A DNA stretch of 64,000 nt from Candidatus Bathyarchaeota archaeon (GTDB taxonomy: Archaea; Thermoproteota; Bathyarchaeia; 40CM-2-53-6): NCBI GenBank assembly GCA_005888745.1, contig VBBS01000027.1, positions 55,045 through 119,044 on the forward strand, in the 5' to 3' direction. This document shows, piece after piece, positions 6,048-51,509 of the stretch. How positions within the stretch are numbered: position 1 is the first letter of the stretch; every line of letters starts with the position of its first letter. The notes beneath the pieces were generated by a model that worked only from the letters and a program-made list of their open reading frames with translations, searched no databases and was not told where the DNA came from. The position numbers were made by a program, and so were the translations under genes.

Positions 6048-6949
6048 GACTAGGTGATCGGGCGAGGCGTCATAACCTCGTTACGGTTGAACTTATTCCG
6101 GACAGAGTGGTTACTAGCGATTTGGCTCTCCTTAGGGGAAGAGTTGACGCTATCACCGTTCCGGCCTTGCGGAATGGCCATAATGACCCAAGTTATCCAA
6201 AGTCTTTCGCGATAACGCCCCAACGCCGAAGTCTTGCTTCCGCATCTATCATCAATAAGGCTGGGATAACCGCTGTTCCCTCGCTAACATGTCGTGATTG
6301 CAGCAGGCTGGACTTGTCAACTGTCTCGAACCAAGTGGAACAAGGGCTTGAGAACGTACTGATAGTCTACGGGGACCCTTATCCAGAGCCTCGTCCCGGG
6401 ACCTATGAGTTCACCAAAACGAACGAGCTAATTCGGGAGGTCTCCTCCCTAAACGACGGAAACGACCCATGCATTGGGGCAGTGACAAACCAACACGCTG
6501 ACAACAGGGAAGGCGAAATCTCCCGAACGATATCACGAGTAGACGCGGGCGCGGACTTTATTGTCACAAACGTCGCCTTCGACTCGGAGAGTGTACTTGA
6601 CCACAGGGATTCCCTACTGGAAGCAGGGTTAGACGTGCCACTCTTCATTCAAGTCTCTATTCCGCTCAACCTAGACAATGTGTTGTTTGTGAGCCAGAAA
6701 TTCGACATACCCGTCCCGGCTCAGGTCAGGAGAAAACTTCTGGAGGATCCGACTGGAGGAAGTCTCGCTGTTGCCGCTGATGCCTACGAGGCCCTACGTG
6801 GAGAAGCGAATGGTATTCACTTCTCATACCTGTTCCGACAACGAAATCCGATTCCCACTTATCGCCATCTGCTGGAGATAATTGGGATAGCAGGCCCGAC
6901 ACTGGCTCCGCTAGCCACGTCTCCTGTGAAAACATATCCCGTTGTCTAG
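6044..6949 (+). CDS. methylenetetrahydrofolate reductase (MetF)-like protein
   Basis: VELIP...LTCRDCSRLDL..ENVLIVYGDPY..GAVTNQH..GADFIVTNVAFDSE follows the MTHFR TIM-barrel pattern. In-frame GTG 6044 overlaps the upstream TGA (GTGA). The long track ORF from 5606 is an overprinted extension. Confidence 0.65.
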   Translation: MRLGDRARRHNLVTVELIPDRVVTSDLALLRGRVDAITVPALRNGHNDPSYPKSFAITPQRRSLASASIINKAGITAVPSLTCRDCSRLDLSTVSNQVEQGLENVLIVYGDPYPEPRPGTYEFTKTNELIREVSSLNDGNDPCIGAVTNQHADNREGEISRTISRVDAGADFIVTNVAFDSESVLDHRDSLLEAGLDVPLFIQVSIPLNLDNVLFVSQKFDIPVPAQVRRKLLEDPTGGSLAVAADAYEALRGEANGIHFSYLFRQRNPIPTYRHLLEIIGIAGPTLAPLATSPVKTYPVV

Positions 6950-40699: not shown

Positions 40700-41002
40700 A
40701 CGCCCGAACAAGGTGCAACCTGTCTGATATTCGCCTTCTTAATCTTCTACCGGGTTAGACCGCTGTCTGAGGCAGATAAGAAGAAAGCCACAGCCGACTG
40801 GGCACGGTTCAAGAAAACACTGTCCAAAGAACTCGCGATAGTAGCGGAGTACGCGCACATCTGGGGAACAACCTACAACGGCATGATCCTCGTCGAGTCA
40901 CGTGACCTCTCCACATTCCACGACTTCTGGCACCGTTTCCGCGAAACTACAAGATGGTACGTGCCAGAGACAAGAACATACATCGCCCAGAAAGAAGAAT
41001 AG
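40700..41002 (+). CDS. small ferredoxin-fold (DUF3303/EthD-like) protein; start codon unresolved
   Basis: Found by hand. The frame is open 40685..41002 and reads ..CLIFAFLIFYRVRPLSEADKKKATADWARFKK...ILVESRDLSTFHDFWHRF... There is no ATG/GTG/TTG before codon ~65. ACG 40700, CTG 40724 and ATA 40727 are candidate starts. Confidence 0.4.
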   Translation, partial: TPEQGATCLIFAFLIFYRVRPLSEADKKKATADWARFKKTLSKELAIVAEYAHIWGTTYNGMILVESRDLSTFHDFWHRFRETTRWYVPETRTYIAQKEE

Positions 41003-41263
41003 GCCAGAACTATCCCGAGTATTTCGACTAGGCTCTATACCAAGAATTTCCGACACCCGCATCTCAGTGGGGCACTCAACTCTCCGTCGGATTAGGAGAG
41101 ATTGTGCCACTGTTCCGGAAGGATTCTTAGCTTCGGCACCTTTCTCTCTGTCTTTTGACTGGAAACGCGCTCACTTGCCAGGGGTCTGGCCAGTGAAAAC
41201 GGTCAATAGGAAAATTCGCCCCCTAAGCGACCTTCTAAGCCCGTAGCCCTAGGATGTTACGAA

Positions 41264-41956
41264 TTGCTCACCGAGTCGCAGTCAGAGATGCTTGGGATAC
41301 TGTTCGGAGATGGGTCGATGTCTGAGAATCACAACTCCGTTCAGATCGTCATAACCGGTCACAAATTCGATGACGTAGAGTACCTAATTGGCCGCGTAGG
41401 TCCGATGTTCGCGGAACTCTTTGAAATGCCCCTCAAGGTACATCTAGTGAAAGATGAAAATACGATGATCCTCTACGCTTACTCCAAACGAATTGCCCTG
41501 ACCCTTCACGAATGGGGAATGCCTTTTGGCCGAAAAAAACTGGCCTGGCTCACACCGCACGTCGCATTGGATGAAGTATCTTTCGTCAGAGGCTTATTCG
41601 ACACAGATGGCTGTGTCTATCGCAAGTATGGCCCTTATTTGCAAATCCAGTTTAAGTTCGCTTCCCTTTCGCTCCTTGAGTACGCGAGGGAGTGTCTGGT
41701 AAGACTCGGCCTGAATCCCACATCGATCAGGTGCGACGATACGAAGTTCAGGTTCTATCTCAGCAGACAAGCCGAGGTAGACCATTTCTTTAGGGTCGTA
41801 GAACCCAAGAACCCAAAGCATCTTAATCGTTTCCAAAATGCTTCTCGGAATCGGTCCTACCGCCCATACACACATCGTCCTGAAGCACTCAGAAGAATTG
41901 GAAACCAACCAAGCCTTATAGGACCAATTCTGTGGAAAACACACTCGGTGGGGTAA
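41264..41956 (+). CDS. free-standing LAGLIDADG homing endonuclease (double-motif)
   Basis: Two motifs: MLGILFGDGS and VRGLFDTDGC. It ends 27 nt upstream of the tRNA-Trp gene. Confidence 0.8.
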   Translation: MLTESQSEMLGILFGDGSMSENHNSVQIVITGHKFDDVEYLIGRVGPMFAELFEMPLKVHLVKDENTMILYAYSKRIALTLHEWGMPFGRKKLAWLTPHVALDEVSFVRGLFDTDGCVYRKYGPYLQIQFKFASLSLLEYARECLVRLGLNPTSIRCDDTKFRFYLSRQAEVDHFFRVVEPKNPKHLNRFQNASRNRSYRPYTHRPEALRRIGNQPSLIGPILWKTHSVG

Positions 41957-41983: not shown

Positions 41984-42164
41984 GGGGCCGTAGTCTAGCC
42001 AGACCCACTCCGGGTCCTAGTAAGGGACGACGACGGGCTCCAGAATCTATGAAACATGCACACCGACCAATATCGAGGGATGAGGAAATTCGGGAGCGCG
42101 TGAAGATACCCGTAGACGAGGGACTCGGCGGATGTCGTGGGTTCAAATCCCACCGGCCCCACCA
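41984..42164 (+). tRNA. tRNA-Trp (anticodon CCA) interrupted by three putative introns; CCA end encoded
   Basis: Acceptor GGGGCCG (41984-90) pairs with CGGCCCC (42154-60). The T arm is GTGGG-TTCAAAT-CCCAC. The anticodon arm is ACGGG (42033-37), loop CTCCAGA, and CCCGT (42109-13). A cloverleaf results only if about 22 nt (D-loop, ~42001-42022), 64 nt (37/38, 42044-42107) and 18 nt (45/46, 42116-42133) are removed. Confidence 0.75.
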
Positions 42165-42619
42165 GTGTAGGGCAAATCGTCAGGGACTGGAAAGATCAGG
42201 ATCTCCTCAGCACAGACTTTGGGTCTAACCATGGCTCTTCAATCCGCCTTCGAGTCTGTTGAGGAATGAATCAATGTACTGCCGTGCGATCCCCCAATCA
42301 AAACGGCTGAGAGAGTCCGATCCGGCCCCGTGAGGACGCGTGTCGCATTGTCATCGATTCTAAGCTAGGTTCACGTAGAATGTCTCGGTCCACGTAAGCG
42401 AGTCCATGATGATTTTCAACTCAATACTGCCCGTTGTCTTGTCTGCTTTTGTGGCGTTCCATCTAGCATTCTGAACCACGAGCAGGAGTGCGTCCCAAAC
42501 CTTCTCAAAGGCGTGGGCAAATCTACCTTCTTTTCTAAAGGCAACTTCTCACATTGGGCCTGCAACCTGGCAATAAACTCACACCCCATCGTCTCCTCAA
42601 TGCTCGGGGCAAATTGAAC

Positions 42620-44562: not shown

Positions 44563-44611
44563 GAAAATCCCAACCCTTTATACAGAACATAAGCCGTGTC
44601 AACTCCACTGG

Positions 44612-45016
44612 TTGTTATTTGGTGTGTTAACTTCGTTCGTCTCCAGCCGTTACCTTCGAAGTATGACTCTTCACATGTTAGGCGGTCGTCGCATGAACCT
44701 GTCACGTTGGGATGAGGGGGATGACTCCGATCAGGTGACGGGTCAGAAATGGGATAGCCGGTTGGCTGGCCACCGTAAAATCCTTGCTTGGCAATCGGCC
44801 AAGTTACCACGCTATGGGCGTGAGGGGGCGGTTGAGGTTCGACCGTTCCCTGCCAAAAAGAGACTACATGTCTCTGAGGCGCAAGGGCTCGCAGGTGAAG
44901 CAGTGAAGAGGAACCCGCCGACGACGGTAATCCTCCGAGCAGATGAGAGCAAGTCTAGTCCCCCAGCAACGGAAGACTCGACAGAACCCAGAACACAACC
45001 CACAAACCATCGATGA
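44612..45016 (+). other. unassigned segment: either a 134-codon ORF of no recognisable family or a structured RNA
   Basis: The ORF is open across the whole HADH-ECH gap and stops 3 nt before the ECH start. The same segment has complementary GT-rich 5' (44610-28) and AC-rich 3' (44992-45008) ends plus several local hairpins. Confidence 0.25.
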
Positions 45017-46658: not shown

Positions 46659-47660
46659 GTGCCGGGAAGGAACAAGAAACGGCCGAAATTGGACCTCAAC
46701 ATCTTCCCCGGAAACTGGACTGTCACGAATGACCGGATGTTCAAGGCCTTCGACCTGTCCTTCGCCCAGAACTGGAACCCTGCTACTTTTCCTTGGGATG
46801 AACTTGACCAGAAGAATTTCGACTCGAAGGAGAGAATAGCGCAAGCCTACTGGATGTCCAAACTGGCTCTCTTCGAGAAATCTGGAATTGGAGCCTTCGG
46901 CTTTGGGGCCGTAAGAGCCGCAGAACTGAACATGGAAGACCCCACGAAGAAGATGCTTGCCTCCATCACATACGATGAATGCCGGCATGACGAAGTCTGC
47001 CGAAGAGCCTGCGACAAGCTCTGTCCCAACTGGCCATACGGATACAAGCCACAATCAGATTTCGAATCAAGGGCCCTCCGAAACATCAAGGCACTCTACG
47101 ATGACGGCAGACGCTACTGGGAAGGATTCCTAAAGGCGTGGGAATATTTGCCGCCTGAGATTCTGTTCGCTGGCTTCTTTTTTGCGGAAATAGGCGCAGA
47201 AACGATCTTCAACGCGATGCGCCAGACCAGCAAACTCGGAATCTACCAACAAACCTTCCGAAATATTACACGAGACGAGACTCGCCATCTCGTTGCGACA
47301 ATGGCCCTGCTCCGGGCCATGGCCGAGAAGTTCTCGGAGGAACAGAAGATGACTATTACCCGGCAGATGAAGCAGGGCTTCATCTTTCTCTCACCCCTCC
47401 TCTACCAGCACAAGCCCGAGTTCTGGCATCTCCCCGCAGACTTTGACAAGGTCGACCAGGAGATGGAGGAAGCGGCCAGGGACGCGGGACTGGGAGTGCT
47501 CACCCTTGAAGAGAAGGTGAAGTTCTGGAAGGAAGCGATTGAGAAGAAACGGTCCGAGATAGAAGAGATGGGAATCAAGGTACCCGCCATCCCAGAGCTG
47601 GGAGTTGAGGGCGAAGAGGTTCAGGTTAAGAAGAACGAGACTATAGCCACGAGCTTCTAG
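46659..47660 (+). CDS. ferritin-like diiron-carboxylate protein (R2/PaaA-like oxygenase scaffold)
   Basis: Two E...ExxH pairs: LFEKSG ... YDECRHD and FAEIGAE ... RDETRHL. Confidence 0.55.
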   Translation: MPGRNKKRPKLDLNIFPGNWTVTNDRMFKAFDLSFAQNWNPATFPWDELDQKNFDSKERIAQAYWMSKLALFEKSGIGAFGFGAVRAAELNMEDPTKKMLASITYDECRHDEVCRRACDKLCPNWPYGYKPQSDFESRALRNIKALYDDGRRYWEGFLKAWEYLPPEILFAGFFFAEIGAETIFNAMRQTSKLGIYQQTFRNITRDETRHLVATMALLRAMAEKFSEEQKMTITRQMKQGFIFLSPLLYQHKPEFWHLPADFDKVDQEMEEAARDAGLGVLTLEEKVKFWKEAIEKKRSEIEEMGIKVPAIPELGVEGEEVQVKKNETIATSF

Positions 47661-47667
47661 GAAGTGG

Positions 47668-47985
47668 TTGAAGATCACGAAGATCATAGTCCTGTTCGGA
47701 CAACCGAAAGACCCCGAACTATTCGATGAGCAATACTGGAAAGACCATGTTCCAATAGCGAAGGCGATGCCAGGTTTGAAGAAATACACAGTTCACAAGA
47801 TCGTTGGGGCACCACGAGGAGAACCGGCATACTACCAGGTTGTCGAACTGGAATTCGAGAATATGGACAGCCTGAAGAAAGCATTGGAAAGCCCGGCCGG
47901 ACGCGAATCAGGCCGGCACGGCGTAAAGATTGCTACTGGTGGCATAACTTTCCTTTACGCGGAATCAAGAGAAGCGATGCCGTAG
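47668..47985 (+). CDS. EthD-domain protein (TIGR02118-like)
   Basis: 105 aa: KIIVLFGQPKDPELFDEQYW..HVPIAKAMPGLKKYTV. Confidence 0.6.
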   Translation: MKITKIIVLFGQPKDPELFDEQYWKDHVPIAKAMPGLKKYTVHKIVGAPRGEPAYYQVVELEFENMDSLKKALESPAGRESGRHGVKIATGGITFLYAESREAMP

Positions 47986-48077
47986 AACAACAACAGTCTA
48001 GCCCGGTTCCATCTGACATATTCCTCGGAAAACGTTCTTCTAATCAGACCCGTCAGTTCTAGGACAGGAGCGGGGAA

Positions 48078-49235
48078 GTCTTAGGCCGCATCGGAATCGT
48101 TGGAGTTGGACATTCAAAGTTCGGAAAAAGGAGCGACGCCTCCCTCCGAGAGCTAGCATTCGAAGCGTACAGTTCCGCCCTAGATGACGCCGACATCGAC
48201 TCTTCAAAAATAGACGGTTCAATAGTTTGCTCCGCCACTCACTACGACAAGCAACGATCGCCTGCAGGTGTTGTTGCGGAATATCTCGGACTCAATCCCC
48301 AACCAACATTCAACGTTGAGGCAGCCTGCGCCTCCAGCGCTGTTGGCCTTCGGACCGCGTGGGCGCTTGTCTCATCAAAACTTCATGATGTGGTGGCCGT
48401 TGTGGGGGTGCAGAAGATGACCGAACTCTCCTCGGAGGAGATCCAGGAGCTCATGGGCAGAGCAGGGGACGTCATGTGGGAGTCTCCCTTCGGAACAACA
48501 ATGCCCGCATACTACGCCTCCTATGCTAACGCCCACATGGCCAAGTACGGAACTACAGAGGAACAAATGGCGCTCGTGTCGGTGAAGAACCGAAAATACG
48601 GATCCAAGAATCCTAACGCCATGTTTCAAAAACCCATCCAATTGGAAGAGGTCCTAAAATCGCGAATGGTATCTTATCCTCTAAAACTATACGATTGCTG
48701 CGCCAATGCTGACGGGGCGGCATGTCTGCTCATTACTAGTGCCGAAAAAGCAAAGAAAATTTCTGATAGACCCGTATGGATCTCCGGGCTTGGCCTGGCT
48801 TCGAGTCCCATGTCGCTTGCTGGAAGAAAAGGTCCATTGACGAGTTTCGATGCCACAAGAAATGCGGCGAGAACGGCATACGAAATGGCCAATATCAAAC
48901 CACACGACGTACATGTGGCGGAGGTTCATGACTCTTTCTCGGTAACAGAAATCATCAATTATGAAGACCTCGGATTCGCACGACCTGGAAGGGGTGCTAA
49001 GCTTCTGGAAAACCAAGGCACGGAGCTCGGCGGGAGAATCCCCGTCAACATCGACGGAGGCTTGATTTCCAAAGGCCATCCAGTCGGAGCCACAGGCGCG
49101 TCCCAGATCTTCGCATTGGTCAAACAACTACGGGGGGAAGCGGGTAGCGTTCAGGTCGACGGCGCTAAGATTGGTCTCGCACAGAACATAGGGGGAATAG
49201 GAATGTACTGCTCCGTTACGATCTTGCGCTCATGA
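48078..49235 (+). CDS. thiolase (SCP-x / archaeal acetyl-CoA C-acetyltransferase type); start codon unresolved
   Basis: The frame is open from 48063. The N-terminus RIGIVGVGHSKFGKR and the catalytic-Cys region NVEAACASS lie upstream of the first canonical start (GTG 48390). The C-terminal GHPVGATGA is also present. The start given is approximate (GTC 48078, TTA 48081 or ATC 48090). Confidence 0.85.
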   Translation, partial: VLGRIGIVGVGHSKFGKRSDASLRELAFEAYSSALDDADIDSSKIDGSIVCSATHYDKQRSPAGVVAEYLGLNPQPTFNVEAACASSAVGLRTAWALVSSKLHDVVAVVGVQKMTELSSEEIQELMGRAGDVMWESPFGTTMPAYYASYANAHMAKYGTTEEQMALVSVKNRKYGSKNPNAMFQKPIQLEEVLKSRMVSYPLKLYDCCANADGAACLLITSAEKAKKISDRPVWISGLGLASSPMSLAGRKGPLTSFDATRNAARTAYEMANIKPHDVHVAEVHDSFSVTEIINYEDLGFARPGRGAKLLENQGTELGGRIPVNIDGGLISKGHPVGATGASQIFALVKQLRGEAGSVQVDGAKIGLAQNIGGIGMYCSVTILRS

Positions 49236-49281
49236 GTACATTCTCCAAGCTCTATGACGAAAAGCGAGGGCGAATCTAGGA

Positions 49282-50208
49282 TTGCAGGTGGACATTCAAG
49301 AGTTGACCCCCATTCAAAGCTTCGGCAGAAGAATTCGAGCCTATGATAAAGCCACACGCCTCGCAAAGGAAGGTCGCCCTGTCACTGAAATCTCGAAAGA
49401 GACGGGAACGCCTGACGCTACCATCAGGGGATGGCTCGTAAACGGTCGAAAACCTTGGACCCGCTGCGAACTCTTCAAACCAACGTACTCTGATCAATTA
49501 ACATATGTTATCGGTGTTTACATGGGAGACGGCTCGATTTCCCGATGGAGAAATCGTTTTTTACTGCGATTAGATGTCAAAGACAAAGAATTCGCCGATA
49601 AGTTTTCTTCAACATGCGCACATGTTCTGGGTAGGAAACCATATTCTGTGAGGCATGTCAGGGATAGGGACACATACGAGACTATCATTTCAAACGCGTC
49701 TTTCTGCAAGTTCCTCAACCGAGGCCTCACCCACCTGGATCGGTATGTACGGGAGCATCCCTCTGGCTTTGTTAGAGGTTTAGCTGATAGCGATGAGTGC
49801 CCCACTGTGACAACAACAAAAAAGCGGGGCAAACCCTGGTTCTTCGTCCAAGTTGTAGTAGCAACATCCAAGAGCATACGCTTACTGAGCTATACTCGGA
49901 CGATCCTGAGGGAATGCCTCGGACTCAAAGCGACGCTAGTGTACAAAGGCAAGCCAAGACCCAGTGTGTTCAAGAACAAGTTGCTCCGTTCAAGAAAGAG
50001 GGTCTTTGACCTTAGGATATCGCGCTTTGGTGACGTGAAACGATTCTCCCGGGTTGTTGGTTTCGAATTGGCTCGGAAACAAGAGAAGCTTGCCGCTGCT
50101 ATCTTCGTCCGTGAAGGATTTGGTTCTGGTCAGGATGCGGTGAAAGAGTGGACCCGTCGCTGGGAGCATGGCACCACTGAGTGGATTCTCAAGAAAGGAG
50201 TGGACTAG
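49282..50208 (+). CDS. LAGLIDADG homing-endonuclease-like protein with N-terminal HTH
   Basis: Motifs YVIGVYMGDGS and FVRGLADSDEC. The N-terminal EGRPVTEISKETGTPDATIRGWL is HTH-like. It sits between the thiolase and DUF35 genes. Confidence 0.7.
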   Translation: MQVDIQELTPIQSFGRRIRAYDKATRLAKEGRPVTEISKETGTPDATIRGWLVNGRKPWTRCELFKPTYSDQLTYVIGVYMGDGSISRWRNRFLLRLDVKDKEFADKFSSTCAHVLGRKPYSVRHVRDRDTYETIISNASFCKFLNRGLTHLDRYVREHPSGFVRGLADSDECPTVTTTKKRGKPWFFVQVVVATSKSIRLLSYTRTILRECLGLKATLVYKGKPRPSVFKNKLLRSRKRVFDLRISRFGDVKRFSRVVGFELARKQEKLAAAIFVREGFGSGQDAVKEWTRRWEHGTTEWILKKGVD

Positions 50209-50212
50209 GCAA

Positions 50213-50620
50213 TTGGGTTTTGAAAAGTTCGGGAGATTTGGTTATGTCTCCCAGACCAAGATCAACCCCTTGTTATCCTATCTGGAAAAGGGGCAGATTG
50301 CCGCGACCAAGTGCAAGAAGTGCGGGAGAACGTACTTTCCACCAAGAGCCGAGTGCCTGGACTGCCGCCACAGTACGATAGAATGGGTTGTAGTGGACGG
50401 GAGGAGCAAACTGATCACATTCACCCAGGTTTTCTTCGCACCACCCGCCTTTCAGCACGAAACCCCGTACATGCTAGGACTTGCGGAACTCACGAATGGG
50501 CTTCGCGTATTCGCGCCTGTCAGTCCTGCAGTGGAAAAGGAGCAACTCAAACCGGGCGTCGAGCTGACCTTGAAGGTTGCAAAAGGCTCACGTGACAACT
50601 TGTACTACTGGCTCGAATGA
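50213..50620 (+). CDS. DUF35 OB-fold/zinc-ribbon protein (thiolase partner)
   Basis: CKKCGRTYFPPRAECLDC zinc ribbon followed by an OB fold. TTG 50213 lies 5 nt after the endonuclease stop. The track ATG 50168 would overlap that gene. Confidence 0.8.
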   Translation: MGFEKFGRFGYVSQTKINPLLSYLEKGQIAATKCKKCGRTYFPPRAECLDCRHSTIEWVVVDGRSKLITFTQVFFAPPAFQHETPYMLGLAELTNGLRVFAPVSPAVEKEQLKPGVELTLKVAKGSRDNLYYWLE

Positions 50621-50645
50621 AGAACATGTGAATCGTCTTTCGGAG

Positions 50646-51509
50646 CTATTCGAGCCGCGGTAATCGGAGATCATCGCCCGCTGTTCGATAGCCGAGCTTG
50701 AGGGCCAATGGTGGGCGTCTCTTGTGCTCTGACTTCAACCAGCGTTCTCGAACTCTCCTGACTAGTGCCAGCTTCAAGCTCGTTTCATCCACTATCTCTT
50801 CTGGTGTCATCCATCTTTCAAGGCCCCAAAGAATCCTGTCCAGCTTCTCATAGCTGAGGCCTAATTCTTTCTCCGCTGTCTGACCTGGCCATAGCTCAGG
50901 GCTAGAAGCTTTCACGCGAATCCTCTCCGGTATGTTCAAGTGTCTGGCCAGGTTCCGGACTGATGTCTTGTAGAGATCTGCGAGGGGGAGTATGTCGCAG
51001 GCTCCATCGCCAAACTTTGTGAAGTAGCCTAGCATAATCTCACTCTTATCGCCAGTTCCCACGACGAGACCGTGCTCCGTGTTAGCATAATAGTAGAGGA
51101 CTATTGCGCGAAGCCGCGCCTTGACGTTTCCCCAAGGAATTCCCTTCGCGCTCTTTGCGTCTAGAGCGTTTCGAGAGGTTTTGACAATGGGCGTAATGTC
51201 AATTAGCTTGAAGCCTATTCTATGCTTCAACGCCACAAGTCTCGCATCTTCCACGGCCTGATCATTCCTCGTCTCATTCTCCGGCAGAGTTATCCCAAGA
51301 ACCCGCCTGCCCCCGACCGCGCGGGCGCATAGCGCCGCGGCAACACTAGAATCTAGACCACCAGACATGCCAAGGACGAGGCAGCGTGCACCGGCTTCTT
51401 CCAGGTGAGTCGTAAGAAATCGTTCAAGCCGACTTACTGTTTCCTCTGGGTCCCGAATGGCGAAAGGATCCTCGCCGTATCTAGAGGACATGGTGTCCTC
51501 GACTTTCAA
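50646..51509 (-). CDS. nadE: NAD+ synthetase (ammonia-dependent type)
   Basis: PP-loop SGGLDSS, and the GTGDKSE and Y.TKFGDG motifs. Confidence 0.85.
   Translation of the reverse strand: MKVEDTMSSRYGEDPFAIRDPEETVSRLERFLTTHLEEAGARCLVLGMSGGLDSSVAAALCARAVGGRRVLGITLPENETRNDQAVEDARLVALKHRIGFKLIDITPIVKTSRNALDAKSAKGIPWGNVKARLRAIVLYYYANTEHGLVVGTGDKSEIMLGYFTKFGDGACDILPLADLYKTSVRNLARHLNIPERIRVKASSPELWPGQTAEKELGLSYEKLDRILWGLERWMTPEEIVDETSLKLALVRRVRERWLKSEHKRRPPLALKLGYRTAGDDLRLPRLE

Follow-up and report, generated by a model that had tools for sequence, protein, structure and literature searches.

The stretch of DNA considered here (the window) comprises 64,000 nucleotides of contig VBBS01000027.1 from a Candidatus Bathyarchaeota archaeon, a soil Bathyarchaeia genome; the related contigs come from soil metagenome-assembled genomes (MAGs) labelled Crenarchaeota or Bathyarchaeia. 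In the window, a gene coding for a LAGLIDADG protein stands between an SCP-x-type thiolase gene and the gene of its DUF35 partner, and is preceded by a mini open reading frame (mini-ORF) which overlaps the thiolase stop codon (Table 1). An earlier interpretation made from the letters alone (hereafter the sequence-only reading) had described these tight junctions, and the coordinates it gave are correct: the ATGA overlap, the TAG at 49277-79, and the 4 nt which separate the LAGLIDADG gene from TTG 50213. The comparison with related loci makes it probable that this is a free-standing homing endonuclease gene, whose product is a monomeric LAGLIDADG enzyme of two domains extended at its N-terminus by a helix-turn-helix (HTH), and which is carried by a cassette of about 1.0 kb at the junction between the thiolase stop and the DUF35 start.

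Table 1. Features of the thiolase/DUF35 locus (positions in the window).
Feature	Position	Strand	Remarks
Mobile cassette (putative)	49209..50212	+	about 1004 nt; takes the place of about 33 nt present in empty alleles
Thiolase tail (last 8 codons and stop), recoded	49209..49235	+	CSVTILRS-TGA, compared to (S/A)AVTIL(K/R)A-TAG/TAA/TGA in empty alleles
LAGLIDADG endonuclease ORF	49303..50208 (alternative start 49282)	+	Pfam; I-DmoI profile match; AlphaFold model
LAGLIDADG motif 1 (IGVYMGDGS)	49510..49536	+	D83 aligns with catalytic D21 of I-DmoI
LAGLIDADG motif 2 (FVRGLADSDE)	49768..49797	+	D171 aligns with catalytic E117 of I-DmoI
N-terminal three-helix (HTH-like) module	49321..49437	+	residues 14-52 (308-aa numbering); missing in type B
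Host thiolase gene (SCP-x / PRK06064-type)	48081..49235	+	Thiolase_N/C_1; NF004720, E 9e-140; stop TGA 49233-35
Host DUF35 / ChsH2-like gene	50213..50620	+	zf-ChsH2 zinc ribbon and OB_ChsH2_C OB fold (Pfam)
Mini-ORF MSTFSKLYDEKRGRI	49232..49279	+	15 codons; ATG overlaps the thiolase TGA as ATGA; TAG 49277-79
Divergent thiolase 3' tract	48516..49208	+	62-78% identical to nearest empty alleles; 85-98% to type-B loci up to about 49160

The endonuclease gene

The protein matches the Pfam family LAGLIDADG_3 with an E-value of 2.7e-8, above the gathering score, and a sequence profile of its family matches I-DmoI with both motifs aligned. In motif 1, residues G82, D83, G84 and S85 are invariant in the alignment of homologues. 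The residue which follows D171 in motif 2 is a near-invariant glycine, except in the window and in its twin L012, where it is a glutamate. The AlphaFold (AF2) model built from 22 homologues has a mean pLDDT of 83.7, and consists of three short helices (residues 14-29, 34-41 and 45-52) followed by two alpha-beta-beta-alpha-beta-beta-alpha domains in tandem, the arrangement which forms the DNA-binding saddle of LAGLIDADG endonucleases. When this model is compared to the PDB with Foldseek, the top matches are PI-PfuI, I-DmoI, I-Tsp061I and E-DreI, with a probability of 1.00; WhiA is also found, at rank 41. The profile search and the predicted fold therefore confirm the LAGLIDADG identity proposed in the sequence-only reading. 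The N-terminal helices match HTH_28 with an E-value of 0.0016, below the cut-off, and because this match is sub-threshold the name HTH is used here on structural grounds.

Two types of alleles are found among the relatives: type A, to which the endonuclease of the window belongs, has the N-terminal helices, and type B lacks them. The ORF of 308 codons which opens at TTG 49282 ends with the TAG at 50206-08, but the protein probably starts at TTG 49303 (301 aa), because a TTG or an ATG is present at this position in 11 of the 11 aligned type-A loci, whereas TTG 49282 is absent in 4 of the 11. The sequence-only reading was right about the ORF, but it had placed the start at TTG 49282, 2 nt after the mini-ORF; the likelier start is 23 nt after it.

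The dN/dS ratio (nonsynonymous over synonymous substitution rate) is 0.11-0.20 for the endonuclease gene, compared to 0.02-0.08 for the thiolase gene and 0.06-0.17 for the DUF35 gene, and on this measure the endonuclease ORF is under purifying selection. Its GC content (49.6%, compared to 52-53% for its neighbours) was considered as a marker of foreign base composition and is uninformative.

No Rfam family matches the region 47500-51500 at E <= 1, hence no group I or group II intron model, and Pfam detects no Hint/intein domain in the ORF. An intein is also excluded because stop codons separate the ORF from both neighbours. An intron or ribozyme context was rejected in view of the Rfam result; bulge-helix-bulge motifs were not explicitly searched. 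The C-terminus of the protein (ILKKGVD) resembles the thiolase tail (ILKA, with the shared nucleotides attctcaag) and was considered as a remnant of it. However, the same pattern is present in the Thermococcales homologues and is therefore native to the family. The homologue search returns about 30 clusters at 52-90% identity and then Thermococcales proteins at about 30%; the search of the full library returns about 200 related clusters at E <= 1e-10, mostly of 260-330 aa.

Occupied and empty sites

The first 11 loci that were collected (L001-L011) had been found via the endonuclease itself or as the thiolases closest to that of the window, and in all of them the order is thiolase-LAGLIDADG-DUF35, in the same operon. 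A search of genome contigs anchored on the endonuclease gave three occupied MAG loci and no empty site. The sequence-only reading had stated that a conserved three-gene order in relatives would indicate a domesticated gene, and with 11 occupied loci out of 11 the first working view was indeed that of a fixed, domesticated gene. A metagenome sample anchored on the thiolase overturned this view. Among its 80 loci, which are the best of 282 when ranked by similarity to the thiolase of the window, 66 are empty, 13 are occupied and 1 is too short to be read. The 66 empty loci have no LAGLIDADG gene, and in them only 3-8 nt separate the thiolase stop from the DUF35 start, so that the two partners are adjacent, whereas in the window the cassette stands between them. 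When all 91 related loci are considered, each of the 66 empty sites comes from the thiolase-anchored sample. A gene order that seems conserved in the closest relatives can thus be a sampling artefact, when the mobile gene itself has served as the query. In every occupied lineage, the insertion is found at the same conserved position.

Borders of the cassette

The borders are defined by pairs of loci which are nearly identical. The occupied loci L004 and L019 are 99.5-99.8% identical to the empty locus L037 across the thiolase gene; downstream, over about 3.8 kb in the case of L019, the identity is 98.6-99.6%. Over the roughly 5 kb which could be compared between L019 and L037, the cassette is the sole difference: 1005 nt in L019 (6129-7133) replace 33 nt in L037 (1211-1243). 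L004 and L019 cease to be homologous to L037 after ATGTAC, at 27 nt from the end of the thiolase gene, and become so again within the first two DUF35 codons. The left border is identical in seven pairs of type-A and empty loci. The empty junction of L037 contains GGAATAGGCATGTACGCCGCCGTGACGATCTTGAAGGCGTGATCTGGATGGGGTTCGAAAAGTTCGGG. The alignment of related thiolase-DUF35 junctions, which had been proposed in the sequence-only reading as a way to find an empty site, therefore defines this site to the base (L019 and L004 compared to L037).

The cassette is composed of a recoded thiolase tail, a 67-nt spacer which includes the mini-ORF, the endonuclease ORF, and the TAG followed by 4 nt. The recoded tail differs from the native one at 11 of 27 nt in the pair L004/L037. 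At its other end, the cassette provides a stop codon and 4 nt before the TTG of DUF35, the native spacing being a stop codon and 5 nt before the start. Both host genes stay whole, because the cassette brings its own thiolase tail and stop codon and keeps the stop-spacer-start geometry in front of DUF35.

Allele types, chimeras and damaged copies

Domain 1 is about 46% identical between types A and B. By contrast, the common type-B alleles share 78-91% identity with the window in domain 2 and at the C-terminus (P0026 and P0028 only 46-61%). Because domain 1 has diverged while domain 2 and the C-terminus are close to the window, the common type-B alleles are B/A chimeras joined at motif 2, that is, at the domain boundary; the breakpoint lies at about 49760-49820. 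When L003 is compared to the window, the flanks are 88-89% identical, whereas the first 570 nt of the endonuclease gene show no detectable DNA similarity. This observation, like the identity island of L001 and L011 described below, was at odds with the early view of a fixed gene.

Both catalytic acids are kept in most copies. The second catalytic site is occupied by Asn in L003, L014 and P0018, and by Gly in L015 and P0003. Frameshifts are found in one type-B copy (L009, at about 6514-6520) and in one type-A copy (L016, at about 6611-6614). The insert of L072 falls 48 nt short of those of its near relatives L005 and L075. The coexistence of copies that appear to be selected, damaged and absent is what the homing cycle predicts.

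Spread between lineages and transfer of flanking DNA

L001 and L011 share an island of 93-98% identity which begins about 50 nt ahead of the thiolase stop and reaches the endonuclease stop, against a background of 75-87%; their synonymous divergence (dS) is 0.16 in the endonuclease gene, compared to 0.81 and 1.16 in the neighbours. When type-A loci are compared two by two (66 pairs), the endonuclease gene has a lower proportion of synonymous differences (pS) than nearly every flanking gene (for example 0.30 compared to 0.74-0.88 for L011 and L078, and 0.14 compared to 0.33-0.43 for the window and L015). In the neighbour-joining tree of the conserved gene located 1.5 kb upstream, empty and occupied loci interleave. 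The identity of this gene to the nearest empty locus and to the nearest occupied locus is 91.9% and 91.4%, respectively, for the window, 92.2% and 83.9% for L078, and 96.9% and 95.3% for L072. Judged from synonymous differences, these comparisons show that the cassette has moved between diverged lineages more recently than these lineages split.

The flanks show that the cassette has at times brought neighbouring thiolase or DUF35 DNA along, as judged from two kinds of linkage. The recoded 27-nt tail is linked to type A, while type B goes together, in different host backgrounds, with a thiolase tract of about 700 nt. The latter was delimited in the window by sliding identity, by comparison of the window to L029, L031 and L039, and with a tree of the last 600 nt of the thiolase gene. 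In this 3' segment of about 700 nt, the window and all type-B loci group together in a deep clade of their own, whereas their upstream genes are scattered. The thiolase gene of L093 has an L043-like 5' portion, yet the linkage between type-B cassette and tract is the same. The tract in the window is read as a co-transferred flank inherited from a type-B cassette, and the copy in the window is a reverse mosaic in which a type-A endonuclease stands beside a thiolase tract linked to type B.

In L078 and P0008, the endonuclease ORF is followed by a degenerate 5' fragment of a DUF35 gene, about 190 nt long and of the class found in the window and in L001. In L078 this donor fragment is followed by the host thiolase tail (GTCACAGTTCTGAGGGCGTAG), a spacer, and an intact DUF35 gene of the other allele class. 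The stop codon of the endonuclease ORF has been lost (L078 5187-5436, also P0008). This arrangement is a fossil of import by irregular integration.

Proposed mechanism and alternative explanations

The element looks like a homing element which is still spreading, and not like a fixed host gene. The sequence-only reading had proposed that an endonuclease gene invaded the junction without intron or intein; the 66 empty sites, the near-isogenic pair, the patchy distribution, an endonuclease gene younger than its flanks and the absence of any Rfam intron match in the region searched all agree with this proposal. The enzyme would cut the uninterrupted thiolase-stop/DUF35-start junction of an empty allele, and the break would be repaired by homologous recombination from an occupied allele, which would copy the cassette in. 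Occupied alleles would be immune, their site being split and its left half recoded. The cassette seems made for low harm, as it carries its own 8 thiolase codons and stop and leaves DUF35 translatable in the operon. The endonuclease is probably expressed from the operon transcript, because there is no sign of a promoter of its own (no promoter scan was made).

A very different explanation would be that the gene codes for a domesticated, non-mobile LAGLIDADG/HTH protein, acting either as a regulator similar to WhiA or as an accessory component of the thiolase-DUF35 system, which is inherited vertically as the third gene of the operon. The gene order in the first 11 loci, the purifying selection on the ORF, the fusion to an HTH and the presence of WhiA among the structural matches (rank 41) are compatible with such a role. 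However, it is very hard to reconcile with the 66 of 80 thiolase-anchored relatives which have no endonuclease gene, with a 99%-identical pair that the cassette alone distinguishes, with an endonuclease younger than its flanks, with catalytic acids which, contrary to those of WhiA, are kept in most copies, and with the lack of the HTH in type B; we consider this explanation most improbable. The repeated loss of an anciently fixed insertion, instead of gain, can be given no more credit. Because the tail of the occupied alleles is recoded (11 of 27 nt differ), the native thiolase tail could not be regained by deletion alone, and loss would also require recombination with an empty allele; in addition, the endonuclease genes coalesce later than their flanks and the donor DUF35 DNA of foreign class in L078 marks an import. 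What can be said for loss is that degenerating copies exist and that the type-A and type-B alleles are old, with about 46% identity in domain 1.

It is also conceivable that the cassette is passive or beneficial to the host, a polymorphism shuffled among soil Bathyarchaeia by ordinary homologous recombination, whose protein is kept for another role such as DNA binding or defence against other elements. However, the borders of the high-identity island coincide with those of the cassette and not with random tracts, and a single insertion site is conserved across lineages. Selection for cleavage predicts both the purifying selection and the retained catalytic Asp, and copies with frameshifts or without catalytic residues are found as in a homing cycle. 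On the other side, mosaicism is widespread at this locus, including two deep DUF35 classes and thiolase tracts, all the observed events are products of recombination, cleavage is a prediction, and only 13 of 79 loci are occupied, without any indication of a sweep to fixation. On balance, a passive or beneficial cassette is unlikely, and we favor a homing endonuclease gene.

Several points weigh against this preferred explanation. The recognition site is deduced from the insertion point and cleavage is a prediction. Ordinary homologous recombination could carry the spread without the enzyme, and we know of no mechanism of genetic exchange between Bathyarchaeia cells. The copy in the window may be weakened or inactive, owing to the change from Gly to Glu beside D171. 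The frameshifts of L009 and L016 and the short insert of L072 may reflect real decay or assembly errors. The occupancy frequencies come from a sample ranked by similarity and are not population estimates. The trees are single-gene neighbour-joining trees without bootstrap, and they are derived from a recombining region.

The mini-ORF

All of the 15 type-A loci show the ATGA overlap, and the mini-ORF, whose length varies from 5 to about 32 codons among them, is confined to type-A cassettes. In type B, the overlap is CTGA or TTGA and there is no mini-ORF, at most a 5-codon ORF starting with TTG (in two loci). The sequence-only reading had suggested that the mini-ORF could be the severed 5' end of the DUF35 gene. 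This idea was rejected: the DUF35 start is intact and matches the empty alleles (88-92% identity to the nearest ones from the first codon on), and in local alignments of the mini-ORF with the DUF35 5' end the similarity is at chance level, since 61% of the shuffled sequences score as high for DNA and 17% for protein. A programmed frameshift which would join the mini-ORF to the endonuclease was rejected as well, as the frame is +1 or -1 depending on the locus, the length varies, and there is no slippery heptamer.

In P0008 the mini-ORF and the endonuclease are fused in frame. An indel in a run of A fuses or lengthens the ORF in P0008 and L078, and therefore suggests, as the most economical explanation, that the mini-ORF is what remains of an ancestral N-terminus which was longer and began at the ATGA overlap. 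A role as a translational relay, by re-initiation after the thiolase stop, is possible.

Comparison with known systems

I-DmoI, I-Tsp061I and PI-PfuI have, like the protein described here, two LAGLIDADG motifs per chain, catalytic Asp/Glu positions and a two-domain fold. However, they are encoded in introns of rRNA genes or in an intein, whereas the present gene is a separate ORF between two protein genes; its product also carries three additional helices at the N-terminus and a conserved helical extension at the C-terminus, and the identity is only 13-16%.

The seg and mob genes of T-even phages are free-standing genes which carry out "intronless homing": they lie between host genes, spread by repair of the break, co-convert their flanks, and the target differs in the carrier. 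They code for GIY-YIG or HNH enzymes in phage genomes, whereas the present gene codes for a LAGLIDADG protein and is located at an operon junction in an archaeal chromosome. In the free-standing elements of the atp6 type from fungal mitochondria, the mobile unit is said to bring a substitute 3' end of the invaded gene, which therefore remains whole; the type of genome and, reportedly, the endonuclease family are different, and in the present case only 8 codons are replaced. General statements in PMC13619312 back the comparison with the T-even genes. In Haloferax, a chromosomal free-standing LAGLIDADG ORF outside any intron or intein has been proposed to drive gene conversion (PMC5867893). It belongs to pfam03161 and is part of a glycosylation island, and the sections of PMC5867893 that deal with it present no evidence from empty sites or populations.

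The Thermococcales proteins annotated as "LAGLIDADG family homing endonuclease" (P0031-P0034) have the same architecture, including the N-terminal region, and a length of about 300 aa; they are 28-32% identical to the query along 80-95% of its length. In T. pacificus, the single genomic context that was checked, the gene is free-standing and lies upstream of the gene of ribosomal protein S15. The insertion site and the host differ from the present ones. WhiA also combines a LAGLIDADG scaffold with an HTH, but it has lost the catalytic residues, its HTH is C-terminal and, as far as is known, it is universally conserved in its lineages. In the protein of the window, on the contrary, the catalytic residues are kept and the HTH is N-terminal, and the gene is patchy.

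The cassette most probably belongs to the known class of free-standing homing endonuclease genes, with an unusually clear natural history. No publication on homing endonucleases in Bathyarchaeota, or on this thiolase/DUF35 site, came to light in a literature search. The present locus offers, for a LAGLIDADG endonuclease of an uncultivated archaeal lineage, an occupied and an empty allele with exactly known borders, and a synthetic target can be used to test the enzyme directly. It also gives direct sequence evidence of recent homologous exchange among lineages of soil Bathyarchaeia whose flanking DNA is 10-25% different, and the natural A/B alleles, chimeras whose domains have been swapped on a compact scaffold that bears an additional HTH, are of interest to meganuclease engineering.

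A broader and tentative idea, which we regard as less likely to be right than wrong, is that the cassette is one of a widespread archaeal class of free-standing HTH-LAGLIDADG elements which home into gene junctions with recoded gene ends and diversify by natural swaps of whole LAGLIDADG domains, as in the A/B chimeras joined at motif 2. The roughly 200 related clusters and the second free-standing LAGLIDADG gene of the window (described below) would be further examples. If this is true, the domain swaps would create new half-site specificities, domain 1 of type B may track the divergent thiolase tail which accompanies it, and such elements would both drive gene flow in uncultivated Bathyarchaeia and serve as markers of it.

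The host operon

The thiolase P0035, recorded from a Ca. Bathyarchaeota MAG, is 100% identical to that of the window. The thiolase gene of the window has no canonical start codon: TTA is found at 48081, and also in L012. The start codon among relatives is ATG in 63 loci, TTG in 13, CTG in 9 and TTA in 2. The NCBI model of the thiolase, with 381 aa, implies an ATC start at 48090. The DUF35 protein has 135 aa and starts at TTG 50213, 4 nt (gcaa) past the endonuclease stop. The DUF35 genes fall into two deep allele classes, which share about 61-65% amino-acid identity (comparison of the window, L007 and L042-L091). Both classes are found among lineages whose thiolases are 80-90% identical, and they track neither the thiolase nor the upstream genes. 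The whole thiolase/DUF35 junction region appears to be a recombination mosaic.

The genes upstream form a beta-oxidation-like operon which codes for a 4HBT thioesterase, a 3-hydroxyacyl-CoA dehydrogenase, two enoyl-CoA hydratases, a conserved 333-aa protein and EthD. The gene of the 333-aa protein (46659-47660) is the best conserved of the operon, with 84-98% amino-acid identity across loci, and Pfam gives a faint rubrerythrin-like match for it.

Other candidate mobile elements in the window

A second free-standing ORF with two LAGLIDADG motifs, unrelated to the first, is located at 41264-41956 on the + strand. It codes for 230 aa, matches Pfam LAGLIDADG_3 with an E-value of 6e-9, and ends 28 nt upstream of an intron-containing tRNA-like gene (41984-42164). 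The latter is missed by ARAGORN and has a sub-threshold Rfam match to the tmRNA/tRNA clan (36.8 bits). An empty site also exists for this ORF: L034 matches 40969-41076 and 41984-42167, without the approximately 880 nt in between.

About 400 nt of extra non-coding DNA (44596-44988) separate the genes of the 3-hydroxyacyl-CoA dehydrogenase and of an enoyl-CoA hydratase. This DNA is found in L012 and L038 (86% identity) and is absent from L001-L005, which were compared. A core of about 70 nt recurs in L011 (318-388) and, on the opposite strand, in L013 (8812-8880). With imperfect 13-nt direct repeats at its ends, the segment 44596-44988 may be a small mobile or repeated element.

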